A stretch of DNA of 64,000 nucleotides, taken from the NCBI GenBank assembly GCA_945903275.1, contig CAMDNW010000002.1:75829-139828 (forward strand), given 5' to 3'. Numbering within the stretch: position 1 is the first letter of the stretch; every line of letters starts with the position of its first letter. The notes under the pieces are model-generated. The model saw nothing but the letters and a program-made list of their open reading frames with translations. It was not told the DNA's origin and made no database searches. The translations under genes were made by a program, and so were the position numbers. The stretch comes from Thermoflexus hugenholtzii JAD2. Lineage in GTDB: Bacteria; Chloroflexota; Dehalococcoidia; UBA2979. Below, one piece after another: positions 18,175 through 49,612 of this stretch.

Positions 18175-18251
18175 GGGCCGTTAGCTCAGTTGGTACGAGC
18201 GCTCGCTTCACACGCGAGAGGTCAGTGGTTCGAGTCCACTACGGCCCACCA
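18175..18251 (+). tRNA. tRNA-Val(CAC)
   Basis: Cloverleaf folded by eye. The 7-bp acceptor GGGCCGU/ACGGCCC pairs. Anticodon loop UUCACAC, T-loop TTCGAGT, encoded CCA. Confidence 0.85.
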
Positions 18252-18310
18252 TGGACGCTCGCGTGAGCAAGGTGTCACGGTCCGCAGCCGGGGCACTGGA
18301 TGATGGCCAC

Positions 18311-18397
<87 letters not shown>

Positions 18398-18445
18398 TTG
18401 TTTCGTATGGTTGAATTGGTCAGGTTGGTCTGTACGCGCTCGTAG

Positions 18446-18521
18446 CTCAGGGGATAGAGCGCAGCCCTGCGGAGGCTGAGGTCGTAGGTTCAAATCCTAC
18501 CGGGCGCACCATTCTTCGTTC
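18446..18521 (+). tRNA. tRNA-Arg with unusual GCG anticodon
   Basis: Acceptor GCGCUCG/CGGGCGC with one G-U pair, D-loop A20, anticodon stem CAGCC/GGCUG, loop CU-GCG-GA with G37, T-loop TTCAAAT, encoded CCA. Anticodon position read directly from the fold. Confidence 0.7.
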
Positions 18522-18859
18522 TGCTTTCAGGCTGCATCCCACATTCACCGCTCCCTTTGAACAGCGCCTGTATGCATGACGCCCGCGCGGTAACGGGTCT
18601 GTAACGCCCCATGGCGCATCTTGAAGATCGCTCATCGTCTGCTACAGGTACCTACTGCCTCAAGCTCCTGCAGTAGACGATGCGTCTCCACGCCGCGCGG
18701 GCGCATTGTGACGCGGCCCTCACCTCACTACGACACGATTAACGCCCTGACGTTGCGTACTAGTCCACTGCCTCATGCACCACTCTTCCCGGTTTCTGCG
18801 CCACTGTGTACATGGAGCGAGCAATTTGCCGTGTTCGCGCTCATCGTAATCGGAACACA

Positions 18860-19030
18860 CTGATCGACAGCGGAGTCTTCGCCGCACTTGTCACTCTTGG
18901 CGGCTGGCATAGCGTGTTGAGCGCGCTGCTCGCTTCAGCGAGCGGCTTCCTCGCCGGAGCGCTGAACTATTGGAACTCGCGCCTCACATTCCATGGCGCG
19001 AGGCGATCCAGGACCACCTTTGGGTGATTC
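18860..19030 (+). pseudogene. GtrA-family (polyprenyl-phosphate sugar flippase-like) N-terminal remnant
   Basis: LIDSGVFAALVTLGGWHSVLSALLASASGFLAGALNYWNSRLTF matches the first half of GtrA proteins (VDxG...N..WTF). It stops after ~55 aa, has no plausible start, and the second half is missing. Confidence 0.45.
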
Positions 19031-21262: not shown

Positions 21263-22264
21263 GTGTTCCACTCGCTGTGGGCTATGTACAGTCCACAGGG
21301 GCAAGCGGGCAGCGTCGCAGCATGGCGCAGTGCGGAGCCAACAGCCGTGGAGCAGCGTGTCGAGGCATTCCTCCACTACATGTCCGCCGAGCGCGGCGCA
21401 TCCAAGAACACGATCGATGCGTACCGCAACGACCTCACCCGATTTACCGAATTCACCGCGGAGCACACCGGCAAAGACGGCGCGAGCGCATCCATCGAAA
21501 CGATCAGCCGCGACCTGATCACGAACTACATCCTCTGGCTGCGCAACGGGAACCAGTACGCCGCCGCGACCGTGGCGCGCAAAGTTGCGGCCGTGAAGTC
21601 GTTCTGCGCATTCCTGCTGGATCACGGCGAGATCACCAGCAACCCGACCGCCTCGATTGACTCACCACGCGCGCCGAAGTCGGTGCCGCACCCGATGAGT
21701 ACCACCGATGTCGACTCGCTGCTGCGGGAGCCGACGCGCCACGCCAGCCCCGAAGCGGTGCGCGATGCGGCGATGCTGGAACTCATGTACGCGACAGGGA
21801 TGCGCGTGACGGAACTAGTCTCGCTGAACATGGACAGCTTGCACCTGCCGCCCGGCCCAGCGTACGTCCGCTGCCTGGGCAAGGGTGCGAAGGAGCGCAG
21901 CATCCCCGTCTACGAGCAGGCTGTGGCCGCGGTGGAGACGTACCTCGACCACGCCCGCGCAGCGCTGCTGAAGGATCGCCAGCAGGCCGCGCTGTTCGTA
22001 AACCGGCGGGGCGAGCGGCTGACCCGGCAGGGCTTCTGGCTGATCCTGAAGGGCTACGCCAAGACCGCCGGCATCGACGCGAGCGTAACGCCGCACACAC
22101 TGCGCCATTCGTTCGCCACGCACATGCTGCGCGGCGGCGCGTCCGTGCGCGACGTGCAGGAGTTACTGGGCCACGCCAACGTCTCGACGACGCAGGTGTA
22201 CACGCAGTTGGCCGACGCACACCTCCGCGAGGTGTTTGAGACGGCGCATCCGCGAGCGCACTGA
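21263..22264 (+). CDS. xerD: site-specific tyrosine recombinase, Xer family (XerD-like)
   Basis: Catalytic R, H-x-x-R and Y blocks are present: ATGMRVTEL, HTLRHSFATHML, LLGHANVSTTQVYTQL. Confidence 0.85.
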   Translation: MFHSLWAMYSPQGQAGSVAAWRSAEPTAVEQRVEAFLHYMSAERGASKNTIDAYRNDLTRFTEFTAEHTGKDGASASIETISRDLITNYILWLRNGNQYAAATVARKVAAVKSFCAFLLDHGEITSNPTASIDSPRAPKSVPHPMSTTDVDSLLREPTRHASPEAVRDAAMLELMYATGMRVTELVSLNMDSLHLPPGPAYVRCLGKGAKERSIPVYEQAVAAVETYLDHARAALLKDRQQAALFVNRRGERLTRQGFWLILKGYAKTAGIDASVTPHTLRHSFATHMLRGGASVRDVQELLGHANVSTTQVYTQLADAHLREVFETAHPRAH

Positions 22265-33363: not shown

Positions 33364-34770
33364 ATGCGGCGCGGATGGCGCGGCCGCGAGCAGCGGCGCG
33401 CACATGCGAGGCCCATCGTGACGACATCGGCGGCACCAGTACCACCGGCACCTGAGCAGCGGACGGCGGCGGATTTGCCGTTGCCGGCGTCGCTGTTTGG
33501 GCGGGCGGTGTTTTATGGGTGGTACATCGTGGCGGCGGGGCTGGTGGCTTCGGCGCTGTCTTCGGGGATCCAAGCGTACGGCCTCGGGACGTTCATCCGG
33601 CCGATGACGGAGGAGTTGGGCTGGTCGCGGACGGACATCTCGCTGGGGCAGACGCTCTCGACGGCGGTGGGCGGGATCATCGGGCTGTTCATCGGGGGAC
33701 TGATCGACCGGCGGGGCGGGCGGATGCTGATGATCGTGGGCGCGATCATCGGAGGCGCGGGGTTCGTGGGCCTCGGGTTCGTGCAGACGCTGTGGCAGTA
33801 CTACCTGGTGAAGGCTGTGATCCTCACGATCGGCATGGCGGGGATGGGGCCGATGATCGTGAACGTCGCGATCTCGAACTGGTTCGTGCGGCGGCGCGGG
33901 CGCGCGATCGCGATCTCGGCGATGGGGATATCGGTAGGGGCGTTTGTGGTGCCGTCACTGGCGGCGTGGCTGATCGGACAGTTCGGGTGGCGCATCGCGT
34001 GGATGGTGTTTGGCGTGGCGGTGTGGGTGGTGATCATCCCGGTCGCGGCGGTGGTGATGCGGCGGCGGCCGGAGGACTTCGGCCTCGAACCCGATGACGG
34101 GTGGGTGTCGTCGCGGGCGGTGAGCGCGCTCGACCAGCGGCGGGCGGATGCGGACGCGCTGGAGTGGACGCGGCGGGAGGCGATGCGGACGCCGACGCTG
34201 TGGCTGTTGATCCTCACGTTCGGCCTGGCTGGCATGGGCGTGGGGGCGCTGTTGCTGCACCTGATCGCGTACCTCACGGACATCGGCTTCTCGACGGCTG
34301 AGGCAGCGTTCGCGTTTAGCATGATCGGGCTGTCGGGACTGATCTCGAAGCCGTTCTGGGGGCTGCTCGTGGAGCGGGTAGCGACTCGGTTTGTGGCAGC
34401 TGCGGAGTTCGTGCTGCTGGGGGTGGGGATCCTGCTGGTGATGATGGCACCGGGGCTGTGGCTGACAGCAGCGGCGATCTTCATCTTTGGGGTGGGCGTG
34501 GGCGGGACGCTGACGGTGCAGGAGACGGTGTGGGCGGACTACTACGGACGGAAGACGCTGGGGACGGTGCGAAGCATCGGGCGGCCGTTCACGATCGTGT
34601 CCAGCGCAGGCGGGCCGGTATTGGCGGGGATGGCGTACGACCTCGGCGGGTCGTACGAGGTGGCGTTCAGCGTGTTCGTGGTGGCGTACCTGGGGGCGGC
34701 GGCGCTGATCTTGTTCACGCCGGAGCCTCGGCATCCGGGGCGGGCCTCGGTGAGAGCGGCGAGCACGTGA
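33364..34770 (+). CDS. MFS transporter
   Basis: ~12 predicted TM helices with the MFS motif-A-like loop GGLIDRRGGRMLM after TM2. Confidence 0.8.
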   Translation: MRRGWRGREQRRAHARPIVTTSAAPVPPAPEQRTAADLPLPASLFGRAVFYGWYIVAAGLVASALSSGIQAYGLGTFIRPMTEELGWSRTDISLGQTLSTAVGGIIGLFIGGLIDRRGGRMLMIVGAIIGGAGFVGLGFVQTLWQYYLVKAVILTIGMAGMGPMIVNVAISNWFVRRRGRAIAISAMGISVGAFVVPSLAAWLIGQFGWRIAWMVFGVAVWVVIIPVAAVVMRRRPEDFGLEPDDGWVSSRAVSALDQRRADADALEWTRREAMRTPTLWLLILTFGLAGMGVGALLLHLIAYLTDIGFSTAEAAFAFSMIGLSGLISKPFWGLLVERVATRFVAAAEFVLLGVGILLVMMAPGLWLTAAAIFIFGVGVGGTLTVQETVWADYYGRKTLGTVRSIGRPFTIVSSAGGPVLAGMAYDLGGSYEVAFSVFVVAYLGAAALILFTPEPRHPGRASVRAAST

Positions 34771-37839: not shown

Positions 37840-39258
37840 ATGAGCACTACACGCACCCGACGCCGTCCTACTGCCGCTACTTCTACTGCCCGTGCAGCCT
37901 CGAAGACTGCGCGACCGGCACGCGGCACCGCGCCCGCCGCGGCCTCGCCGTTTGCGAAGCGGCGGGAGGCGCTGATGCGGCTGCTGATGCGTGATGCGGC
38001 GGCGAGCGGGGGGCCGGTGGCGGCGGTGTTCGCCTCGGGGCACGAGGCGAACCGGAACGGGGACGTGGACTACGAATTCCGGCAGCCCTCGACGTTCTAC
38101 TACCTGACGGGATTCGAAGAGCCGGAGGCGGTGGCGGTGCTGCGGCCGGGGCACAAGGAACCGTTCGTGCTGCTAGTACGGCCACACGATCCACAGATGG
38201 CGATCTGGGTGGGGACACGCGCGGGCATCGAAGGCGCGGTGCAGCGGTACGGCGCGTCCGCGTCGCATGCGATCGACGAGTTGGACGAGCAGTTGCCGAA
38301 GTTGCTGGCGGGGATGCGCACGGTCTACTTCTCGCTGGGGGCCGACGAGCGCATCGAGAAGTTAGTGTCGCGCTCGGTGGCGCAGAGCCGGGGAGCCGGG
38401 CAGCGTGGCGGCGTGGCGATCGAGCGGGTGGCGGACCCATTCCCATTCGTCTCGCAATTGCGCGTGATTAAGACGGCGGAGGAGATCGCGACGTTGCAGA
38501 GCGCGATCGACATCACCGGCGCGGGCATCGAAGCGACGATGCGTGCGACGAAGCCGGGGATGCACGAGTACGAGTTGCAGGCGATCCTGGAAGCCGAGTA
38601 CCGGCGGCTAGGGTCGCCGCGCAATGGGTTCCCCTCGATTGTCGCGACAGGGGCGAACGCGTGCACGCTGCACTACACAAGCAACCGCGCGCGGGTGGAG
38701 CATAACGACCTCGTGTTGCTGGATACCGGCGCGGAAGTGGACTACTACGGCGCGGACGTCTCACGCACGTATCCGGCGAGCGGGCGGTTCACGCCGGAGC
38801 AGCGGGCGGTGTACGACGTGGTGCACGAGGCGCAACGGCAGGCAATGGCAATCATCGCGCCGGGGGTGCGCTTCATAGAAGTACACGACCGAGCGGTGAA
38901 GGTGCTCGTCGATGGCCTGCGGCACCTCGGAGTGCTGGATGGTCGGACGGCGAAGTTGACGAAGGACGGGGCGTACCGGCCGTACTACATGCACGCGACG
39001 AGCCACTGGCTGGGCATGGATGTCCACGATGTGGGCGCGTACCGCGAAGGCGGGGCATCAGTGGCGTTGCGGCCGGGGATGGTGCTGACGGTGGAGCCGG
39101 GGCTGTACATCGCGCCGGACTCGGATACGCCTCGTGCGTTGCGCGGGATCGGCGTGCGCATCGAGGACGACGTGCTGGTGACGCGGGACGGGCACCGGAA
39201 CCTATCGGTGGGGATCACCTCGGACGCGGACGAGTTAGAGGCGATCGTCCGGGGGTAG
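37840..39258 (+). CDS. pepP: Xaa-Pro aminopeptidase (M24B)
   Basis: N-domain FYYLTGFEEPEAVAVL, then the pita-bread metal ligands HYTSN...DTGAEVDYYGADVSRT...HWLGMDVHD...E. N-terminal ~35 aa are R/T/A-rich. Confidence 0.88.
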   Translation: MSTTRTRRRPTAATSTARAASKTARPARGTAPAAASPFAKRREALMRLLMRDAAASGGPVAAVFASGHEANRNGDVDYEFRQPSTFYYLTGFEEPEAVAVLRPGHKEPFVLLVRPHDPQMAIWVGTRAGIEGAVQRYGASASHAIDELDEQLPKLLAGMRTVYFSLGADERIEKLVSRSVAQSRGAGQRGGVAIERVADPFPFVSQLRVIKTAEEIATLQSAIDITGAGIEATMRATKPGMHEYELQAILEAEYRRLGSPRNGFPSIVATGANACTLHYTSNRARVEHNDLVLLDTGAEVDYYGADVSRTYPASGRFTPEQRAVYDVVHEAQRQAMAIIAPGVRFIEVHDRAVKVLVDGLRHLGVLDGRTAKLTKDGAYRPYYMHATSHWLGMDVHDVGAYREGGASVALRPGMVLTVEPGLYIAPDSDTPRALRGIGVRIEDDVLVTRDGHRNLSVGITSDADELEAIVRG

Positions 39259-39364: not shown

Positions 39365-41473
39365 GTGTTGCGCCGAGGTTGTTCAATGCCCGACAAGTAC
39401 GGATCGCGGTCTGGTTCAGAGATCACCGAGATCGCCTCGGGCACTGCGCGTGCATGGATAGCCACGCGGGCGGGCGCGGTAGTCGTGGTGCCCGTATTCA
39501 ATGAGCGCGAGAGCGTGCACACGGTGCTCGACGACATCGTGCGGTGGGGCGCGGGGACGATCCTGATCGTGGACGACGGATCGACGGACGGGTCGGCGGG
39601 TATCCTAGATGACTGGGCGGCGGGGAAGCCGGGCGTGCGGGTGCTGCACCTGCCGGAGAACCACGGCAAGTCGGCCGCGCTGCGGGCGGCGTGGGGGCAG
39701 TTGCGAGATGACCTCGATCGCGACGCGGTGAGCACGGAGACAGCCGTCATCACCATCGACGCTGATGGACAGCACGACCTCACGGCGTTGGGCGCGCTGG
39801 TGGCGCGCCTCGATGACCTCGGGGCCGACGCGGTGATCGCGCGGCGGGATATGAGGTACCACGGGCGATACAAGCGGGCGGGCAACTGGGTGATGACCGC
39901 GCTTGGCAGCCTATGCGGCGGCACGCGGTTGCATGACATCGAAAGCGGCTACCGCGTAGTGCGACTGGGGCCGCTGCTGCACGCGCACGAGTTCTACAAG
40001 GGGCGTCGGTACAGCGAAGCGGCGGAGCAGGTGGTCGTACTAGGACGCCTTGGCTACCGCGTGGACAACGAGTACATGGTGCAGGTGCCGGTGGAGCGCT
40101 CGCGGACGCGGCTGCGCGACGCGGTGAACCATGCGGTGTCGATGTGCGCAGCATGGTATCGGGTGCTGTGCTGGCGCGAGACGCCTCGGGAGCAGCGGTC
40201 GAGCCTCGGCGCGTGGTCAGCGGCGCTACTACTGGGGTCGTTCGTGGGGCTGCTGGCGGTGATGCTGACGCATCGCGTGTACCTGGGGAACGACAGCGCA
40301 CAGTCGTACGCGCATGTATGGCACATCGCGCGATCGCTGTTCGGGGGGGAGGGGTTGCCACTACACATGGCGAGCCTCGAATCTGGGCGGGCGTTCACCT
40401 TCCCGTACGCGGCGATCCCGTGGCTACCGACGGCGCTGGTGTACCCGGTGTTGGGCGACTGGGCGGTGACAGCGAGCATGGTGCTCGGCGTGGTGCTGCT
40501 TGCGGTAGGTATCTGGCGATGGCTACCGCGCACGGCAAACCCGCTGATGACAGCGCTGTTCCTGCTCAACCCGCAGTTGTGGATGGGGGTCGCGCAGTTC
40601 CAGTTGCCGACGGTGTGGGCGTTCGCTTTCGTATGCTTCTCAGCAGCGGCGTTCGACCGGGAGCAGCCGCGCCGAGGAACGGCGCTGGCGGTCGCGGCGC
40701 TGGTCGCGCATCCGCTCATGGGTGCGACGGGGCTGCTCCTGACCGTGCTCCTACACATCGGAGAGCGGCGGCGGGCGCCAGTGCTGCGGGTCGCGCTGCT
40801 GGGGCTGGCGGCTGTGATCACAGCGCCCGCAGTGTGGATATTCGCCTCGATGCCGTTGGTGGAGCAGGTGGGATATAGCGCACTGCTCGTGCCGTTGCAG
40901 GCGACGCTGACACGACTGAGCATGCTGTGGTGGCCGTGGCTGGTGCAGCGCTTCGGTGCGTGGTCGCTGCGCGTCCACGCGCCGCTGTTGTTGATCGGGC
41001 TGGTGTTCGTCGCGCATAACGCGAGCATCCGTCACCCGCATAACCTGTGGGATTACACCCAGCCGAGGTTCGCGGACTATATCGAGGCTGGACAGGTCGA
41101 CACCGGCACTCGCTACCGGGTGCTAACGATGACCGAGCATGAAGATGGCATGGTTCAGTTGATCCGCGCAGGTGGGACGCTCGCACACGAGTTCTTCGAC
41201 GAAAGCATCAAGCGTGACTCATTCAGGACGACCGAGAATTACCGCTGTTTCCTAGGGCTGAAGCGAACGACGCACGTGCTCGTGAGCGCGGAGTGGCAAC
41301 GGCGGGGCTACACAGACGAGTTGCGGCTGCTCGACCAGATGGTGGAAGACAGCTACGCGACGTTGGCGTTCCGCGGGCTAGCGGGGACGCTGGACTACAA
41401 GCTTCAGGGCAACGCACCGTTATCCTGCCCGGGCGTCGCATTCCCCGCCGGCGCGCCGCGAACAGCGCAATGA
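39365..41473 (+). CDS. GT2-family (polyprenyl-phosphate sugar synthase-like, DPM1/GtrB/ArnC type) glycosyltransferase fused to a ~400-aa polytopic membrane domain and a C-terminal soluble domain
   Basis: The N-terminus shows the GT-A fold with VVVVPVFNE, IVDDGSTDG, DADGQHD (DxD) and the ESGYRVV catalytic-base region. Residues ~270-540 contain ~10 hydrophobic helices, followed by ~160 soluble residues. Confidence 0.8.
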   Translation: MLRRGCSMPDKYGSRSGSEITEIASGTARAWIATRAGAVVVVPVFNERESVHTVLDDIVRWGAGTILIVDDGSTDGSAGILDDWAAGKPGVRVLHLPENHGKSAALRAAWGQLRDDLDRDAVSTETAVITIDADGQHDLTALGALVARLDDLGADAVIARRDMRYHGRYKRAGNWVMTALGSLCGGTRLHDIESGYRVVRLGPLLHAHEFYKGRRYSEAAEQVVVLGRLGYRVDNEYMVQVPVERSRTRLRDAVNHAVSMCAAWYRVLCWRETPREQRSSLGAWSAALLLGSFVGLLAVMLTHRVYLGNDSAQSYAHVWHIARSLFGGEGLPLHMASLESGRAFTFPYAAIPWLPTALVYPVLGDWAVTASMVLGVVLLAVGIWRWLPRTANPLMTALFLLNPQLWMGVAQFQLPTVWAFAFVCFSAAAFDREQPRRGTALAVAALVAHPLMGATGLLLTVLLHIGERRRAPVLRVALLGLAAVITAPAVWIFASMPLVEQVGYSALLVPLQATLTRLSMLWWPWLVQRFGAWSLRVHAPLLLIGLVFVAHNASIRHPHNLWDYTQPRFADYIEAGQVDTGTRYRVLTMTEHEDGMVQLIRAGGTLAHEFFDESIKRDSFRTTENYRCFLGLKRTTHVLVSAEWQRRGYTDELRLLDQMVEDSYATLAFRGLAGTLDYKLQGNAPLSCPGVAFPAGAPRTAQ

Positions 41474-41522
41474 CGGATACGGAGCCGGATGTTGCACGCG
41501 TGTTCAAGGCGCTAGACGCGGA

Positions 41523-42239
41523 GTGAAGGGCATTAGGGTCGTGGGCGGCCTCGCGATTCTCGTGGCGGGCGTGTGGGCAGTGCTGCTCGGGATGGGCGGA
41601 TTCGACCAAGGAATCACGCACGGGATGGATGAGCGGCCGATGGTGGCGCTCACCTTCGACGACGGGTTAAACGAGCACTACACGGTCGCGGTCGCGGACA
41701 TCCTGGAACGCTACGGGGCACGGGGGACGTTCTTCATCGTGGGGCGACCGCTCGCGGAGCAGGCCTCGTTGGCACAGCGGCTGCGCGAGCGCGGGCATCT
41801 GCTCGCGAACCATTCGTACACGCACACGCGGGCAATGCGGAGCGATGTGCAGTACAACGAACTATCACGCACGCAGGCGGCGTTCGAGGAGCAACTGGGA
41901 GCGTGCCCACGGTTCTTCCGCCCGCCGTACGGGACGGAGACGGTGTTCACCAAAGCAGCAGTACAACGCGCGGGGATGCAGACGGTACTGTGGGACGTAG
42001 AAGTGGCTGACTGGGGGGAGAGCAACCCTCAACGGCTGGCGGCGCGCGTGCTGGGACTGGTGCATGCGGGAGCAATCGTACTGCTACACGACGGCCTCGA
42101 TGGGAGGCCCGGGGCGGATCGGTCGGTGTTGGTCGCAGCGTTGCCTATCATCCTCGATGGACTGCGGGCGCGCGGGCTGATGGCGGTGGGAGTGGACGAG
42201 TTGCTGGGGGCACCGGGCTACCTCGATCAGTGCGGATGA
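41523..42239 (+). CDS. polysaccharide deacetylase (CE4/NodB family) with N-terminal membrane anchor
   Basis: N-terminal TM, then the NodB motifs ALTFDDG, HSYTH and RPPYG. GTG start 49 nt downstream of the GT2 fusion gene. Confidence 0.85.
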   Translation: MKGIRVVGGLAILVAGVWAVLLGMGGFDQGITHGMDERPMVALTFDDGLNEHYTVAVADILERYGARGTFFIVGRPLAEQASLAQRLRERGHLLANHSYTHTRAMRSDVQYNELSRTQAAFEEQLGACPRFFRPPYGTETVFTKAAVQRAGMQTVLWDVEVADWGESNPQRLAARVLGLVHAGAIVLLHDGLDGRPGADRSVLVAALPIILDGLRARGLMAVGVDELLGAPGYLDQCG

Positions 42240-42295: not shown

Positions 42296-42667
42296 ATGAC
42301 CTCGACGCCGGGGCGGATGAGCGCCATGCCGTACTTCGTGGTGCGGGAGGCGCCGCGGTTCATCGACTTCCTGGAGCGGGCGTTCTTAGCCGAGGTACTG
42401 CTGCGGGTGCCGGGGTTCGACGCGAGCATCGCACATGCCGAGGTGCGCATCGGTGACTCACTGATCGGCTTCAGCGAGTCATTCGACCGCGACGAACTAA
42501 CGCGCGGCGCAACTATGCTGCACACCGACGATGTGGATGCGACGTACTGGCGGGCGATGGAGGCGGGGGCGAACTCGCTCCGGGGGCCGGCCGATCAGGC
42601 GCGCGACGGGCGGATCGCGGAAGTGGTCGACTGGTGGGGGAACCGCTGGTTGATCACGTCGCGCTGA
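42296..42667 (+). CDS. VOC/glyoxalase-family protein
   Basis: The PhnB-like VOC fold motifs MPYFVV...FLERAF and RWLITS are present. Confidence 0.7.
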   Translation: MTSTPGRMSAMPYFVVREAPRFIDFLERAFLAEVLLRVPGFDASIAHAEVRIGDSLIGFSESFDRDELTRGATMLHTDDVDATYWRAMEAGANSLRGPADQARDGRIAEVVDWWGNRWLITSR

Positions 42668-43308: not shown

Positions 43309-46300
43309 ATGCGTATTCAACGACACTTCACTACCGCCGGCCACGACCCCTACGAGGGCATCGAATTCGTCGCGCGGGAGTCAAAGATCATCAATCCTGA
43401 TGGATCGGCGGTGTTCTCCGCGGACGGCCTCGACATGCCAGCGGTGTGGTCGCAGGTGGCGGTCGACATCATGGCGCAGAAGTACTTCCGCAAGCGCGGC
43501 GTGCCCTCGTCGGCGCGGCACATATGGGAGGCCGACGTACCCCCGTGGCTGTGGACCTCGATGCCCGAGGCGAACGCGACGATGGGCGGCGGCGAGACAG
43601 ACGCGCGGCAGGTGTTCCACCGCCTGGCGGGAACGTGGACGTACTGGGGCTGGAAGCACAAGTACTTCGACAGCGAGCAGGACGCTGCCGCGTTTTATGA
43701 CGAGTTGTGCTACATGATGGCGACGCAGCGCGCCGCGCCGAACTCGCCGCAGTGGTTCAACACCGGCCTGCACTGGGCCTACGGCATCACCGGCCCGGCC
43801 CAGGGCCACTGGTACGTCGACCCGATCGCGGGCGACCTGCGCGCCTCGACCTCAGCGTACGAGCGGCCGCAGCCGCACGCGTGCTTCATCCAGTCTGTGA
43901 CCGACGACCTCGTGAACGAGGGCGGGATCATGGACCTGTGGACGCGCGAGGCGCGCATCTTCAAGTACGGATCGGGCACAGGTTCCAACTTCTCGCAGTT
44001 GCGCGGCGAGAACGAGCCGCTGTCGGGCGGCGGCAAGTCGTCGGGGCTGATGTCGTTCCTCAAGATCGGCGACCGGGCGGCGGGAGCGATCAAGTCGGGC
44101 GGCACCACGCGGCGCGCGGCAAAGATGGTGATCGTCAACGCCGACCACCCGGATGTGGAGCAGTTCATCGAGTGGAAGGTGCTGGAAGAGCAGAAGGTCG
44201 CATCGCTCGTCACCGGGTCGAAGGTCACGCGGCGGTCGCTGCGGGCGATCCTCGACGCGGCTGAGGCGGACGGCATCGACCCGGTCGCGAACCGGGGGCT
44301 GCGGCGGGCGGTGGCGCGGGCGCGGCGTGACGGAGTGGCGGAGGCGTACATCCAGCGCGCGCTGCAACTGGCGCAGACGGGCAACTTCGACTTCGACTTC
44401 CGGCAATTCGACACGGACTGGCAGGGCGAGGCCTACCTGACGGTAGCGGGGCAGAACTCCAACAACTCGGTACGCGTGACCGCGGACTTCCTGAGCGCGG
44501 TCGAGGACGACGGCGATTGGAACCTGACCAGGCGCACTGACGGTAGCGTGGAGAAGACGCTGAAAGCGCGTGACCTGTGGGCGCGCATCGCGAATGCGGC
44601 GTGGCAGTCGGCCGACCCGGGGTTGCAGTACGACACCACGATTAACGAGTGGCACACGGCTCCGGCGGGCGGGCGCATTGACGGTTCCAACCCGTGCAGC
44701 GAGTACATGTTCCTCGATGACACGGCGTGCAACCTAGCATCGCTGAACCTGCTCGCGTTCTACGACGAGACGAAGGCACAGTTCGACATTGAGGCGTACG
44801 AGTACGCCAACCGGCTGTGGACGATGGTGCTGGAGATCTCCGTGCTGATGGCGCAGTACCCGAGCCGGACGATCGCGCAGTTGTCATATGACTACCGCAC
44901 GCTGGGCCTCGGCTATGCCAATCTGGGCGCGATGCTGATGGTGCAGGGGATCCCGTACGACTCGCCGGAAGCGCTGGCGCAGGCCGGGGCGCTGACCGCG
45001 ATCATGACGGGCATCTCGTACGCGACCTCGGCGGAGATGGCGGCGGAGCTGGGCTCGTTCCCACGGTACGTTGAGAACCGGACGGCTATGCTGCGCGTGA
45101 TCCGCAACCACCGGCGCGCGGCCTACGCCGCGCCTCGTGAGCAATACGAAGAGCTGACGGTGCTGCCGAAGGCGATCGATCAGCAGTTGTGCCCGCGCGA
45201 CCTGCTCACGGCGGCGCAGCGTGCGTGGGACAACGCGCTCACGCTGGGCGAGGCGCACGGCTACCGCAACGCACAGACCTCGCTGATCGCGCCGACCGGC
45301 ACGATCGGGCTGCTGATGGACTGCGATACCACAGGCGTAGAGCCGGACTTTGCGCTGGTGAAGTTCAAGAAACTGGCGGGCGGCGGCTACTTCCGCATCA
45401 TCAACCTGTCGGTGCCGGGGGCGCTCGCACGCCTCGGGTACACGACGGCGCACGCGGACGACATCGTGCGGTACTGCGCGGGCACGGGCACGCTGGCCGG
45501 AGCGCCGCACATCAACCACGAGACGCTGGCGGCCAAGGGCTTCCCGGCGGACATGCTGGCGCGCATCGACACGTCGCTGCCGTCGGCGTTCGATATCACC
45601 TTTGCGTTCAACAAGTGGTCGCTCGGCGCGGAGTTCTGCCGCGACGTTCTCGGCTTCACGGACGAGCAGCTGTCCGACCCGGCGTTCGGCGTGCTCGACG
45701 CGCTCGGGTTCACCCGGGCGCAGGTGGAGGCGGCGAACGACCATATCGTGGGCCGCATGACGGTCGAGGGCGCGCCGCACCTGAAGCCGGAGCACTACGC
45801 GGTGTTCGACTGCGCCAATCGCTGCGGCAAGTACGGCACGCGCTACATCGCCCCGATGGCGCACGTGCGGATGCTGGCGGCGGCGCAGCCGTTCATCTCC
45901 GGCGCGATCAGCAAGACGATCAACATGCCATTCGACGCGACGATCGAGGAGGTGGCCGACGTCTACATGGCCTCGGCGAAGAGCATGGTGAAAGCGGTCG
46001 CGCTGTACCGCGACGGATCAAAGCTGTCACAGCCACTGTCCGCGGTAGCATTCGACGACCTCGATGAGGAGTACTTCGAGGACGACGGGCCGGTGGTACC
46101 GCCGGCGGCGGCCGACCACCCGGCGGTACGCGCGGCGGAGGACTTCGTACGTAGCTTGCAGCGCGGGTCGCGAGAAAAGCTGCCGACGCGGCGGCGCGGG
46201 TACGCGCAGAAGGCAAAGGTGGGCGGGCACTCGATCTACCTGCACACGGGCGAGTTCAACGAGCGGAACGACGACGGATCGCCTCGGCTCGGCGAGATCT

Positions 46301-46884
46301 TCGTGTCGATGTCGAAAGAGGGCGCGGCGTTCGGTTCGCTCATGAACTGCTTCGCGATCGGCGTGAGTATCGGCCTCCAGCACGGAGTGCCGCTGCAAGC
46401 GTACGTAGACTCGTTCATCTTCCAGAAGTTCGAGCCGAACGGGATGGTGATCGGCCACGACCGCATCTCGATGGCGACGAGCATCATCGACTACCTGTTC
46501 CGCGAGCTGGCAGTCACGTACATGGGCCGCGACGACCTAGCGCACTTCGGGCCGCCCGAGGATCACGACCCGGCGGAAGACGCCATCGACCAGCCGACGC
46601 CGGTGACGGCACGAGACTTCATCGCCTTCGACAGCGGTGATGGCGACGTGGCGCCCGCTCCGGCGGCGGCCACTGTGGTGGCCGATCCGCCACGGCTGCC
46701 GAGCGCCACGCCGGTTTCGGCAGTCCTCGAAATGCACGTGCAGAAGCCAGCTGACCGAGTGGTGGAGGCGCGCCTGAAGGGCTACGAGGGCGACCCATGC
46801 GACGAGTGCGGGCAGTTGATGATGGTGCGCAACGGGACGTGCTTGAAGTGCCTCAACTGCGGCGCGACGTCAGGGTGTAGCTAG
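43309..46884 (+). CDS. nrdJ: adenosylcobalamin-dependent (class II) ribonucleotide reductase, long form with C-terminal zinc ribbon
   Basis: RNR barrel with SNPCSEY active-site Cys region, GGG...FIS...KTINMP C-terminal radical-transfer area, and a terminal CDECGQL...CLKCLNCG ribbon. No intein blocks are seen. Confidence 0.93.
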   Translation: MRIQRHFTTAGHDPYEGIEFVARESKIINPDGSAVFSADGLDMPAVWSQVAVDIMAQKYFRKRGVPSSARHIWEADVPPWLWTSMPEANATMGGGETDARQVFHRLAGTWTYWGWKHKYFDSEQDAAAFYDELCYMMATQRAAPNSPQWFNTGLHWAYGITGPAQGHWYVDPIAGDLRASTSAYERPQPHACFIQSVTDDLVNEGGIMDLWTREARIFKYGSGTGSNFSQLRGENEPLSGGGKSSGLMSFLKIGDRAAGAIKSGGTTRRAAKMVIVNADHPDVEQFIEWKVLEEQKVASLVTGSKVTRRSLRAILDAAEADGIDPVANRGLRRAVARARRDGVAEAYIQRALQLAQTGNFDFDFRQFDTDWQGEAYLTVAGQNSNNSVRVTADFLSAVEDDGDWNLTRRTDGSVEKTLKARDLWARIANAAWQSADPGLQYDTTINEWHTAPAGGRIDGSNPCSEYMFLDDTACNLASLNLLAFYDETKAQFDIEAYEYANRLWTMVLEISVLMAQYPSRTIAQLSYDYRTLGLGYANLGAMLMVQGIPYDSPEALAQAGALTAIMTGISYATSAEMAAELGSFPRYVENRTAMLRVIRNHRRAAYAAPREQYEELTVLPKAIDQQLCPRDLLTAAQRAWDNALTLGEAHGYRNAQTSLIAPTGTIGLLMDCDTTGVEPDFALVKFKKLAGGGYFRIINLSVPGALARLGYTTAHADDIVRYCAGTGTLAGAPHINHETLAAKGFPADMLARIDTSLPSAFDITFAFNKWSLGAEFCRDVLGFTDEQLSDPAFGVLDALGFTRAQVEAANDHIVGRMTVEGAPHLKPEHYAVFDCANRCGKYGTRYIAPMAHVRMLAAAQPFISGAISKTINMPFDATIEEVADVYMASAKSMVKAVALYRDGSKLSQPLSAVAFDDLDEEYFEDDGPVVPPAAADHPAVRAAEDFVRSLQRGSREKLPTRRRGYAQKAKVGGHSIYLHTGEFNERNDDGSPRLGEIFVSMSKEGAAFGSLMNCFAIGVSIGLQHGVPLQAYVDSFIFQKFEPNGMVIGHDRISMATSIIDYLFRELAVTYMGRDDLAHFGPPEDHDPAEDAIDQPTPVTARDFIAFDSGDGDVAPAPAAATVVADPPRLPSATPVSAVLEMHVQKPADRVVEARLKGYEGDPCDECGQLMMVRNGTCLKCLNCGATSGCS

Positions 46885-47108
46885 AGTAATGGAGTACCGC
46901 GTAACCCTCGGGACGCATCCCGAGGGTTACGCGGTAGCGTGCTTCTATACCACTCTCAGAAACGTCAGCGATAAGCATGGGTGCCGTTTGTGACCGCAGA
47001 GGACAGTGACAGCGGGTACCTCGGTGTGGTGTTTGAGACAGGACATCAGTCATGTGTTGCCGTGCGTTGTAGCATGCGCGGCAACACATGACTGATGTGG
47101 AGGTCGCC

Positions 47109-48341
47109 ATGCCGGACAAAGCGCTCTCGCGCATTCGCATCACCGACTTCAGCGGCGTGCTCGCCGGAGCAGGGGCCAGCCGCATCCTCGCGGCCTTCGG
47201 CGCGCAGGTGATCCGTGTTGAAAATCCAGCGAACAAGGGGGCTTGGGACCCGCTGCGCGCGAGCGCCCCTTACATCGATGAGCGGCGGGGGCACAACTTC
47301 GGGGGCGGGTGGCAGAATCACAACGTCGAGAAGCTGGGTGTCACTTTGAACCTCGCCACGCCGAAGGGGCGCGAGCTGTTCCCGCGCCTCGTAGCCATCT
47401 CCGACATCGTGGCCGAGAACTTCGCGGCCGGCGTGCTCGCGCGCCTCGGTTTCGCGTACGAGCAACTACAGTCGATAAAACCGGACATCATCTACCTCTC
47501 AAACTGCGGGTTTGGGCACTGGGGACCGTACGAACAGTTCAAGACGTGGGGTCCCATCGTGCAGGCGTTCAGCGGCCTCACGTACACCTCCGGGCTACCC
47601 GACCGGGCACCCGCTGGGTGGGGCTACTCATACATGGACCACGGCGGCGCGTACTTCGGCGCGATCGCCATGCTCGCGGCGCTGCACCACCGCCACAAGA
47701 CCGGCGAGGGCCAGCACATCGATCTTGCCACCACCGAGGCAGCATCGACGCTCATGGGCACACACATTCTCGACTACACCGTGAACGGCCGCCGAACGCG
47801 CAACGAGCATGGCGTCGACTCGAACCGTGGCGAGGCGCTCATGGCGCCGCACAACATCTACGCGGCCAATGGCGAAGATGAATGGGTCGCGATCGCCTGC
47901 CGTGATGATGCCGAATGGCGCGCACTGGCTGGCGAGATCGGAAAGCGTGCGGAGGATCCGCGCTTCACGATGCTCGAAGGCCGCCTCGCGCACCGTGACG
48001 ACCTCGAAGCGCTGGTGGGTATCTGGACCGCGGATCAAAACAAGTTCGCGGTCCAGCGCCGGCTACAGGCGCTCGGCATCCCGGCAGCAGCCGTGCAGCG
48101 GCCCGAGGAACGCGTCGACAAAGACCCAAACACGGCGGCGTGGGGGCTGTGGCCGCAGGTGCACCACAACGAGATGGGGAAAGTGCGCGTCGACGGCATC
48201 CCCGTGCACGCCTCGGCCACAGACTGGGAGATCAAGCGTGGCGCGCCGCTACTCGGCCAACACAACTACGAGGTATACGGAGGGCTGCTCGGCATGAGCG
48301 ACGGCGAGATCGCAGCGCTGACGGCGGAGGGCGTGCTATGA
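47109..48341 (+). CDS. family III CoA-transferase (CaiB/BaiF/Frc family), subunit 1
   Basis: N-terminus RIRITDFSGVLAGAGASRILAAFGAQVIRVENP and the central family III fold. The stop overlaps the next start (ATGA at 48338). Confidence 0.85.
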   Translation: MPDKALSRIRITDFSGVLAGAGASRILAAFGAQVIRVENPANKGAWDPLRASAPYIDERRGHNFGGGWQNHNVEKLGVTLNLATPKGRELFPRLVAISDIVAENFAAGVLARLGFAYEQLQSIKPDIIYLSNCGFGHWGPYEQFKTWGPIVQAFSGLTYTSGLPDRAPAGWGYSYMDHGGAYFGAIAMLAALHHRHKTGEGQHIDLATTEAASTLMGTHILDYTVNGRRTRNEHGVDSNRGEALMAPHNIYAANGEDEWVAIACRDDAEWRALAGEIGKRAEDPRFTMLEGRLAHRDDLEALVGIWTADQNKFAVQRRLQALGIPAAAVQRPEERVDKDPNTAAWGLWPQVHHNEMGKVRVDGIPVHASATDWEIKRGAPLLGQHNYEVYGGLLGMSDGEIAALTAEGVL

Positions 48342-49612
48342 CCGGCTCACTGAACGACCTGCGAGTAATCGAGCTCTGCGATGAGGCCGGCGCGTGGGCT
48401 GGAAAGCTGCTCGCGGACATGGGCGCCGACGTTATCAAGGTGGAACCGCCTCGGGGCAGCATCGTGCGCTCGTACCCGCCGTTCTACCACGACGAACCGC
48501 ACCCCGACCGCAGCCTCGCGTTCTGGAACTACAACACCAGCAAGCGCGGCGTCACGATCGACTTAGAGCAGGCGGCAGGGCGTGAGGTGTTTCGCAATCT
48601 AGTCGCGAGCGCAGACATGCTGATCGAAGATCAGGCGCCCGACCGCATGGCAGCCTGGGGCCTCGATTATACTGACCTCGCGCCGACACACCCGGGGCTG
48701 ATCATGGTCTCGATCACGCCGTTCGGGCGGTCCGGCCCGCGCTCTGAGGAGCAGGCGACCGACCTCACGCTGCTCGCTGGCGGAGGCCCAGTGTGGTCAT
48801 GCGGTTACGACGACCACACACTGGCGCCGGTGCGCGGACACGGTAATCAGGGCTACCTCACGGCGAGCAACTGGGCCGTCGCGACCGCGCTGATCGCTCT
48901 GCTGCACCGTGATTTCACGGGCGAGGGTCAGCACCTTGATGTGAACATGCACGCCGCACAGAACGTCACAACGGAGGCCGCCAGTTACACGTGGCTGGTC
49001 GCTAAGCAGACCGTGCAGCGGCAGACAGGGCGTCATGCCTCAGTGGTGCCTTCGGGAGACGTGCAAGTGATCGCTGGCGACGGACGCTACGTGACGACGG
49101 GCTTCGCGCCGCGCCGGCCCGCCCAGATAGCCATGATCCTCGAATGGCTCCACACGCTCGGTATAAAGGAACAGTTCGACCAGTGGCCACTACTCGAGGT
49201 CGGCGCACACCTCAACCACGACATCACGATCGCTGCCATCGAAGAAGGTGGCGAGGATGCGATGATCTTTGGGGCGGTGCGCGCGGCGCTGCTCTTCATC
49301 GCGCAGCACATCACTGCCTACGAGTTCTTCGTAGGCACGCAGTCGCGCGACATGCAGTGCGGTCTCATCAACGCGCCCGACGATGTCATCGATGACCCGC
49401 ACATGCGCGAGCGCGGCTTCGCGGTCGAGGTCGCACATCCGGAGCTTGGCCGCTCGTTCATCTATCCCGGCGCGCCGTACCATCTGCCAGCCTCACCATG
49501 GCGCATATCGAGACGTGCGCCCTTGCTCGGCGAGCACACGGACGAGGTGCTGTCGGAGATAGGTGTATCGACGGTGGAGCGGCAGCAACTGCGGGAGGCA
49601 GGCGTGGTTTAG
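48338..49612 (+). CDS. family III CoA-transferase, subunit 2 (paralogous to upstream gene)
   Basis: LRVIELCDEAGAWAGKLLADMGADVIKVEPP N-terminus, same family, translationally coupled to the upstream gene. Confidence 0.85.
   Translation: MTGSLNDLRVIELCDEAGAWAGKLLADMGADVIKVEPPRGSIVRSYPPFYHDEPHPDRSLAFWNYNTSKRGVTIDLEQAAGREVFRNLVASADMLIEDQAPDRMAAWGLDYTDLAPTHPGLIMVSITPFGRSGPRSEEQATDLTLLAGGGPVWSCGYDDHTLAPVRGHGNQGYLTASNWAVATALIALLHRDFTGEGQHLDVNMHAAQNVTTEAASYTWLVAKQTVQRQTGRHASVVPSGDVQVIAGDGRYVTTGFAPRRPAQIAMILEWLHTLGIKEQFDQWPLLEVGAHLNHDITIAAIEEGGEDAMIFGAVRAALLFIAQHITAYEFFVGTQSRDMQCGLINAPDDVIDDPHMRERGFAVEVAHPELGRSFIYPGAPYHLPASPWRISRRAPLLGEHTDEVLSEIGVSTVERQQLREAGVV

Follow-up and report, generated by a model that had tools for sequence, protein, structure and literature searches.

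The 64,000 nt stretch of Thermoflexus hugenholtzii JAD2 analysed here (GenBank assembly GCA_945903275.1, contig CAMDNW010000002.1, positions 75,829 to 139,828), referred to below as the window, carries two adjacent genes that predict a long membrane protein and a membrane-anchored deacetylase (Table 1). The first protein has an N-terminal glycosyltransferase family 2 (GT2) domain joined to a membrane domain that is predicted to adopt the GT-C glycosyltransferase fold, and the second belongs to carbohydrate esterase family 4 (CE4). Both open reading frames (ORFs) are real genes rather than chance ORFs, because ~100 full-length homologues sharing 34-63% identity retain the same architecture. Residue numbers refer to the 702 aa ORF of the fusion gene, and the labels L001-L022 and P0001 etc. 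denote related loci and database proteins.

The first in-frame ATG of the fusion gene, at 39386, has a GAGG Shine-Dalgarno sequence 7 nt upstream, and a database protein of 695 aa (P0001) is 100% identical over its whole length to the product read from this codon. Because P0001 begins at the position marked by the GAGG, the product is probably 695 aa and the GTG start at 39365 is probably 7 codons too early. Scans for promoters and terminators around the module detected none above background.

Predicted domains of the two proteins

The four GT2 motifs listed in the initial annotation are all present, namely VVVVPVFNE (residues 39-47), IVDDGSTDG (68-76), DADGQHD (132-138) and SGYRV (194-198), and the type of GT2 proposed there is backed by Pfam, PDB sequences and fold. 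Pfam PF00535 (Glycos_transf_2) covers residues 40-189 (E 8e-25). Three ArnC sequences are the sole matches among PDB sequences at E below 1e-6, and the other match, to GalT1, is weak (E 5e-4). The segment D132-A-D134-G-Q136-H aligns with DADLQN of ArnC, which is the DAD-x-Q motif for metal and nucleotide-sugar, and DADGQH is kept in all 13 fused members of the test alignment. Matches to NCBIfam models are weak and sub-threshold (AglJ, PpgS, ArnC, the haloarchaeal DPH transferase and generic GT2 enzymes), with the equivalogs ArnC, PpgS and AglJ all far under their cut-offs (PpgS, for example, scores 44.8 bits where 370 are required). When the full-length AlphaFold model was compared with known structures using Foldseek, ArnC and GtrB took ranks 1-19, and the processive hyaluronan and cellulose synthases ranked lower with a very high root mean square deviation. 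The QxxRW motif of processive GT2 synthases was looked for in the fusion protein and is not present. The GT2 half can be assigned with good confidence as a putative polyprenyl-phosphate monosaccharide synthase, the sugar of which is not readable from the sequence.

The description of the remainder of this protein as ~10 helices and a C-terminal soluble domain was about right, as it comprises ~9 transmembrane (TM) helices and juxtamembrane helices followed by an alpha/beta domain (residues ~556-690). Two independent AlphaFold 2 (AF2) models are confident, with predicted local distance difference test (pLDDT) scores of 90.7 and 91.0 and predicted template modelling (pTM) scores of 0.89 and 0.90, the full-length model having the first value of each pair (90.7 as a mean). 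The predicted fold of the membrane domain resembles GT-C glycosyltransferases only, and no permease or other non-glycosyltransferase family was matched. Entries in the fold-match table are AglB (13.6; 349), ArnT (12.8; 319), AftA (12.4; 294), ALG12 (12.3; 284), STT3B (12.2; 362), Pmt4 (12.1; 239) and DPY19 (12.1; 351), and the polytopic fold that is common to ArnT, PglB/AglB/STT3, PMT, ALG and Emb/Aft enzymes is seen in the predicted structure.

No such relationship was found by sequence. Residues 271-702 match no family in Pfam or NCBIfam at E up to 1, including PMT (PF02366), PMT_2 (PF13231)/ArnT (GT83), YkcB, YfhO and DUF2029, and a spermidine synthase match of 11-13 bits was discarded as meaningless. 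A profile built from 35 family sequences found no real match among all PDB sequences, the hits being chance matches to G-protein-coupled receptors at E above 0.2, and an hhalign comparison of the membrane domain with the PMT_2-type GT-C of a further fusion protein, P0104, returned a probability of 0.8%, i.e. no relationship. The oligosaccharyltransferase motif WWDYG (WW[DE][YWF]G) occurs in 0 of 40 family members. The idea that this part of the protein might be a GT-C enzyme is thus favoured by the predicted fold and by the lack of a permease match, but finds no counterpart in any named GT-C profile (PMT, PMT_2, ArnT or YkcB). The membrane domain is, on its modelled structure, a GT-C-fold protein of a family found in neither of the profile libraries searched (Pfam and NCBIfam).

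In GT-C enzymes, the first extracytoplasmic loop, which follows TM1, carries a conserved acidic residue, as seen in the structures of ArnT, PglB and PMT. The corresponding loop in this family spans residues 302-349 and includes D310, which is invariant in 40 of 40 diverse members and is a candidate for the catalytic or metal-binding acid of the domain. Residues G341, P347, Y348, H449, R585 and E652 are likewise invariant in this set, and Y315, H317, W319, Q413, W418, R517 and Y584 are near-invariant. A topology with 9 TM helices and the N-terminus inside and C-terminus outside, taken from the AF2 helices, obeys the positive-inside rule, with 0.26-0.66 K+R per residue in the inner loops and 0.02-0.07 in the outer loops. 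This model places D310, H449, R585 and E652 together with the near-invariant Q413, W418 and R517 outside, and G341, P347 and Y348 where the first outer loop meets TM2. A first model with 7 TM helices was dropped because it violated the positive-inside rule, leaving two adjacent K/R-rich loops.

The CE4 ORF begins 49 nt after the end of the fusion ORF. Its coordinates, its match to PF01522 (Polysacc_deac_1, E 8e-28) and a single N-terminal hydrophobic segment at residues 6-24 (Kyte-Doolittle 2.39), with K2 and R5 ahead of it, agree with the downstream deacetylase with an N-terminal anchor reported in the initial annotation. The catalytic motifs of CE4 enzymes are TFDDG, H-S/T-x-x-H, R-x-P-Y, D-x-x-D-W/Y and L-x-H, and all five can be read intact from the translation (TFDDG 44-48, H97-S-x-x-H101, R133-P-P-Y136, D158-x-x-x-x-D163-W164 and L188-H189). 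The nearest NCBIfam families are PdaB, NodB and PgdA, and the homologues in PDB are chitin, xylan and peptidoglycan N-acetylglucosamine (GlcNAc) deacetylases, e.g. SpPgdA (2c1g). ArnD is represented neither by a model among the NCBIfam matches (E up to 1) nor by a chain among the PDB matches.

The partner CE4 proteins of other loci carry an N-terminal anchor or signal peptide ~20 residues ahead of TFDDG. The one at L013 (L013:9260-9958) begins VRRLLAAATVLVSLLVVACGG, which resembles a lipoprotein signal peptide and includes a lipobox-like LVVAC; the anchor of the window CE4, unlike that at L013, looks uncleaved. In P0002, a single polypeptide containing all three domains, the CE4 domain comes after the C-terminal globular domain, and no TM segment lies between the two. 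Because of these anchors and signal peptides, the L013 lipobox and the domain order in P0002, the CE4 is predicted to be an extracytoplasmic, signal-anchored NodB/PgdA-type enzyme that faces the same compartment as the putative GT-C active site.

Distribution and arrangement of related loci

When 1.84 billion cluster representatives were scanned exhaustively with HMMER (E up to 1e-3), only 188 relatives of the membrane domain were recovered. The fusion architecture, whose recurrence the initial annotation had made a point to be checked, is the main form, as 89 of the 129 near-full-length members (at least 330 profile positions covered) are fused to a GT2. Other forms in this set are standalone proteins of 400-470 aa (39 members) and proteins with an added C-terminal CE4 (2 members). 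Co-occurrence with a CE4 gene, on which the earlier proposal also depended, was seen in a comparison of 22 related loci, where a CE4 orthologue 42-62% identical to that of the window accompanies the GT-C domain at every locus with enough flanking sequence. It is immediately downstream in all 16 of the flanked compact loci (L001, L002, L004 and L007-L019), some of which are near-identical (e.g. L001/L002/L007), and lies within the cluster in L003, L005/L020 and L006. The neighbouring genes change from locus to locus around the conserved GT-C/CE4 pair.

Five arrangements were distinguished. The first, found in the window and in L004, L008-L011, L013, L015, L018 and L019, is a GT2-GT-C fusion gene followed by the CE4 gene, the two being separated by anything from a few to ~170 nt or overlapping by 4 nt. 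In the second, GT2, GT-C and CE4 form a single polypeptide (P0002, 883 aa, and P0006, 898 aa). In the third, at L022, a 647 aa protein joins GT2, TM and CE4 parts but has no GT-C domain, and a standalone gene of the GT-C family, which scores 443 bits against the family profile, starts 83 nt later. The same GT2-TM-CE4 fusion was found in P0100 (643 aa); hydropathy counts of TM segments in P0100 and in a second such fusion, P0101, were unreliable (6 and 2 segments) and were not used. The fourth consists of a standalone GT-C gene followed by the CE4 gene (L001/L002/L007, L012, L014 and L017), with a related GT2 absent within 8 kb or an unrelated GT2 3 kb away, and the fifth of larger operons (L003, L005/L020 and L006). 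The permuted fusions argue strongly for a single pathway that unites the three activities.

All 15 loci that derive from the collection of species-representative genomes are from Chloroflexota metagenome-assembled genomes (MAGs), mostly labelled Dehalococcoidia and recovered from lakes and groundwater. All named homologues of the fusion protein and of the CE4 are Chloroflexota, one homologue (P0053) being from Tepidiformaceae, and those nearest to the window CE4 have Chloroflexota or Dehalococcoidia names only; for many of these close CE4 homologues the longest contig is given with the length also given for a fusion protein, so that the two probably share a contig. The GT-C family appears to be restricted to Chloroflexota. 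Two MAGs contain two paralogous copies each, namely ELA490 (L016 and L019) and SSF39 (JAIBBD01), in which L013 is the compact two-gene form and L020 the large operon form. A separate set of actinobacterial proteins from Streptomyces and Candidatus Microthrix (P0105-P0119, 840-1062 aa) is annotated as 'GT2 / dolichyl-phosphate beta-glucosyltransferase' with 600-850 unannotated C-terminal residues, and may represent further GT2-membrane-domain fusions of other kinds.

The larger operons are conserved sister arrangements in which the family member is 35-44% identical to the window protein. Genes for an OmpR-type response regulator, a histidine kinase, a DegT-family aminotransferase and a short-chain dehydrogenase/reductase (SDR) dehydratase precede the GT2-GT-C fusion gene, which is followed by a major facilitator superfamily (MFS) transporter gene and usually a second SDR gene, with the CE4 gene within the cluster. 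The best NCBIfam matches of the aminotransferase are the 4-aminotransferases PseC, LegC, DesI and ArnB, and the SDR dehydratase is closest to RmlB and LegB (4,6-dehydratase-like). Two operon lineages out of three, L005/L020 and L006, have an extra divergent pair, a standalone GT-C with a ~400 aa CE4 whose N-terminus is polytopic. Among the three MFS proteins of the operons, one weakly resembles the LtaA flippase and the others do not. Judging from their predicted genes, the sister operons suggest that the family works on amino sugars, and they look like a monoderm counterpart of PmrAB-arn. No formyltransferase or acetyltransferase gene is present in these operons, and for this reason the acyl group removed by the CE4 would most simply be the 2-N-acetyl group of a sugar derived from a UDP-N-acetylhexosamine (UDP-HexNAc).

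Table 1. Features of the module, its flanking genes and related loci. Positions without a locus label are those of the window.
Feature	Position	Strand	Details
GT2-GT-C fusion gene	39365..41473	+	702 aa if read from GTG 39365; probably 695 aa, with ATG 39386 as start
Cytoplasmic GT2 (GT-A fold) catalytic domain and interface helices	39476..40174	+	Residues ~38-270; ArnC/DPMS/GtrB-like
Polytopic membrane part of predicted GT-C-fold domain	40211..41029	+	Residues 283-555; ~9 TM helices, N-in/C-out
D310 codon	40292..40294	+	9 residues past TM1, motif LGxDSxxxYAHVW
C-terminal extracytoplasmic alpha/beta globular domain	41030..41434	+	Residues 556-690; YR and EFFxES motifs
CE4 (NodB-type) deacetylase gene, membrane-anchored	41523..42239	+	238 aa; PF01522, NCBIfam, PDB homologues, motifs
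Aminopeptidase P gene	37840..39258		Flanking gene
Small glyoxalase-fold protein gene	42296..42667		Flanking gene
Class II (B12-dependent) ribonucleotide reductase gene	43309..46884	+	Flanking gene
GT2-TM-CE4 fusion and standalone GT-C-family gene	L022:2133-5400
Sister operon	L003:1728-11242
Sister operon	L005:486-11670		Same as L020
Sister operon	L006:1172-12510

Proposed pathway and alternative explanations

The two genes probably, though by no means certainly, constitute a module of three activities that decorates the envelope via a lipid-linked sugar and yields a cationic amino sugar. The cytoplasmic GT2 domain, on its homology and fold, would load a sugar from a nucleotide sugar onto polyprenyl phosphate in the manner of ArnC, GtrB and DPMS, and this sugar would most simply be an N-acetylhexosamine (HexNAc), e.g. 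GlcNAc or N-acetylgalactosamine (GalNAc). The lipid-linked sugar would then be flipped to the outer leaflet. The GT-C-fold domain, given its fold, the invariant Asp in its outer loop and its fusion to the GT2, may pass the sugar from polyprenyl-P-sugar to an extracytoplasmic acceptor. The anchored CE4 would strip the N-acetyl group outside the membrane. It could do so while the sugar is still on the flipped lipid-linked donor or once the sugar has been transferred, and by either route a free-amine, cationic sugar would be left on the envelope. The functional tie between the CE4 and the other two parts follows from gene fusion and adjacency; the chemistry is what we infer. Dehalococcoidia are monoderm, with S-layers and no lipid A, and peptidoglycan is ancestral in this group and was lost in several orders (PMC10284905). 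Because of this variety of envelopes, the candidate acceptors are peptidoglycan, wall polymers (including secondary ones), lipoglycans and S-layer glycoproteins.

Several points weigh against this interpretation. The GT-C assignment derives from predicted structure, with no sequence profile that ties the domain to a characterised GT-C family, and it is solely from the fusion to the GT2 that we infer a lipid-phosphate-linked donor. Neither the sugar nor the acceptor is legible in the sequence, several loci with a standalone GT-C and CE4 have no GT2 within 8 kb, and CE4 enzymes can also be O-deacetylases. There is no flippase gene next to the module within the window. The initial annotation had envisaged a self-contained pathway in which a polyprenyl-P-N-acyl-sugar is made, deacylated and transferred, and the linkage of the three parts agrees with this, but with no flippase gene adjacent the module is not evidently self-contained, and the CE4 does not appear to be an ArnD-type cytoplasmic enzyme.

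Two MFS genes in the window were considered as the missing flippase and rejected. One, at 33364..34770, predicts a lactate/oxalate-formate-type transporter unlike the operon MFS proteins, and the second has no family match and no resemblance to the operon MFS genes. A GtrA remnant had also been reported. The ORF concerned (18806..19027, + strand, 73 aa) lies 20 kb from the module, just downstream of tRNA-Val, tRNA-Leu and tRNA-Arg genes at 18175..18511. It spans profile positions 9-59 of the 117 in PF04138 (E 1.8e-4), and its 22.1 bits are under the cut-off of 26.1. It is plausibly a truncated GtrA-like gene as claimed, but the match is sub-threshold and weak as evidence, and nothing ties the ORF to the module. 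A tyrosine recombinase gene (21263..22264, + strand; Phage_integrase and an N-terminal SAM-like domain) is located 2.2 kb downstream of this fragment and a uvrC-like gene, and may encode a XerC/D-type housekeeping enzyme rather than the integrase of a mobile element.

The proposed pathway has parallels in known systems. In the three-component scheme, a GtrB-type GT2 synthase feeds a GT-C-fold transferase on the membrane's outer face (PMC13390465), and the combination of a GtrB-type GT2 with a predicted outer-face GT-C-fold partner is shared with GtrA/GtrB/GtrV of Shigella phage cassettes, CsbB/GtcA/YfhO and GacI/GacJ/GacL. The module differs from these in having the synthase and GT-C in one polypeptide, in a GT-C family unmatched by Pfam, NCBIfam or PDB sequences, in the absence from the window of an adjacent GtrA, of which there is only the sub-threshold fragment described above, and in having CE4 as an obligatory third partner. 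The resemblance to the PmrAB-regulated pathway for 4-amino-4-deoxy-L-arabinose (L-Ara4N; ArnB, ArnA, ArnC, ArnD, ArnT and ArnE/F) includes ArnC as the closest solved relative of the GT2, ArnT as one of the folds nearest to that of the membrane domain, a CE4-family enzyme in both, and, around distant family members, a cluster that also encodes a two-component system, SDR enzymes and a 4-aminotransferase. In contrast to Arn, however, the CE4 of the module is NodB/PgdA-like and predicted to be extracytoplasmic, GT2 and GT-C are fused, there is no formyltransferase, and the hosts lack lipid A. Neither genes that modify the sugar nucleotide nor counterparts of ArnB, ArnA and ArnE/F are found near the module in the window, and aminotransferase and SDR genes, again with no formyltransferase, occur only in the distant operons L003, L005 and L006.

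The closest functional precedent is the decoration of mycobacterial arabinogalactan with galactosamine (PpgS/Rv3631, Rv3632 and the GT-C Rv3779), which follows the same logic. There, the GT2 PpgS makes polyprenol-P-GalNAc, this is deacetylated, and a GT-C moves the free amino sugar to the wall polymer (PMC5964476, PMC3485146). The mycobacterial proteins are separate, whereas the candidate deacetylase of the present family is linked genetically and sometimes covalently, and the GT-C families are unrelated in sequence. The predicted fold resembles that of AglB (GT66), including the C-terminal domain, but in comparison with AglB/STT3/PglB the membrane domain lacks WWDYG and is much smaller (~430 aa, ~9 TM), and the expected donor would be a monophosphate-linked monosaccharide from the fused GT2 rather than a diphosphate-linked oligosaccharide. 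The fusion principle is not unique, as GT2-PMT_2 fusions (P0104, 773 aa) have the same order of an N-terminal GT2 and then a GT-C. However, the GT-C of P0104 is of a recognised ArnT/PMT type (PF13231, PF02366), with no known CE4 partnership.

A more specific form of the proposal is offered tentatively and, taken as a whole, is rather unlikely. In it, a new Chloroflexota-specific GT-C family, through its covalent bond to its own donor synthase and its tie to an outer-face CE4, would form a single machine to make a cationic amino sugar, deacetylate it on the carrier and transfer it, thereby carrying out a HexNAc to hexosamine (HexN) step of the mycobacterial type, the compact form would perhaps be free of a flippase, and the larger operons would be the monoderm counterpart of PmrAB-Arn.

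Among the alternatives, the GT-C-fold domain might be a binding scaffold rather than a transferase, like PIG-U in the glycosylphosphatidylinositol transamidase, that presents polyprenyl-P-HexNAc to the CE4 so that the deacetylated glycolipid is used elsewhere. This is improbable, because several polar residues are invariant and active enzymes are matched better. A synthase-dependent exopolysaccharide of the poly-N-acetylglucosamine (PNAG)/Ica or chitosan type, where a processive GT2 polymerises and exports GlcNAc and the CE4 partly deacetylates the product, would account for the pairing of a GT2 with an extracytoplasmic CE4, as in PgaC/PgaB and IcaA/IcaB. It would also fit a partial NCBIfam match to PgaC_IcaA (44 bits over the N-terminal 110 residues) and a CE4 nearest to deacetylases that act on polymers. 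As the GT2 subtype, the domain order, the lack of QxxRW and the GT-C fold all contradict it, we regard this explanation as very unlikely. A true Arn-type pathway, with a 4-formamido- or acylamido-sugar on polyprenyl phosphate and the CE4 as an ArnD-like deformylase that acts on the cytoplasmic face before flipping, is highly improbable. The CE4 and its orthologues have signal anchors or a lipobox, the CE4 can be fused behind an extracytoplasmic domain, and it resembles PdaB, NodB and PgdA with ArnD absent among its NCBIfam and PDB matches; moreover, no formyltransferase, aminotransferase or dehydratase gene was found near the module in the window, and lipid A is lacking in the hosts, which are monoderm Chloroflexota (PMC10284905). 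That a GtrB-like enzyme with an accessory membrane tail simply neighbours a housekeeping peptidoglycan deacetylase, as the PgdA/PdaB-like CE4 and the housekeeping flanks (aminopeptidase P, glyoxalase and class II ribonucleotide reductase) might suggest, is barely credible when every compact locus with enough flank keeps the genes adjacent, even though the surroundings change, and two kinds of covalent fusion join the CE4 to the other parts.

The logic of a GT2 synthase that supplies a GT-C transferase with CE4 involvement is known already (Gtr, Arn and mycobacterial systems), as are GT2-GT-C fusions with a recognised GT-C. What is new is a compact predicted GT-C family that is absent from Pfam, NCBIfam and PDB, appears restricted to Chloroflexota and has an obligatory, sometimes fused, extracytoplasmic CE4. 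Full-text literature searches for GT2-GT-C fusions or for modules of a GT-C and a CE4 found no description of the family. With the envelope-decorating module as the favoured explanation, the family would define a new GT-C family, minimal at ~430 residues, and a new CAZy family if activity is shown. The permuted fusions would be a natural demonstration that polyprenyl-P-sugar synthase, GT-C transferase and CE4 work as a unit, and the module is a concrete candidate for a route from lipid-linked N-acetylhexosamines to free amino sugars on bacterial envelopes. If the more specific form of the proposal holds, the kind of enzyme responsible for the mycobacterial step from polyprenyl-P-HexNAc to polyprenyl-P-HexN would be identified. 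The module also offers a view into the envelope chemistry of Dehalococcoidia and other Chloroflexota, which are abundant and mostly uncultured and have poorly known walls, and the sister operons with a two-component system suggest regulated remodelling of surface charge in monoderms, analogous to polymyxin-resistance pathways.

Surroundings of the module in the window

The G+C content of the window is ~66%, and the genes flanking the module are housekeeping genes (Table 1). The class II ribonucleotide reductase gene predicts a protein of unusual length (1191 aa) with a TSCPD domain at the C-terminus, and its residues 289-356, which weakly resemble the N-terminal domain of TACO1/YebC, may be an insertion. 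Further downstream, two family III CoA-transferase genes are arranged in tandem (47088..48341 and 48140..49612, + strand). Read as its longest ORF, the second would overlap the first by ~200 nt, and its real start is probably further downstream.

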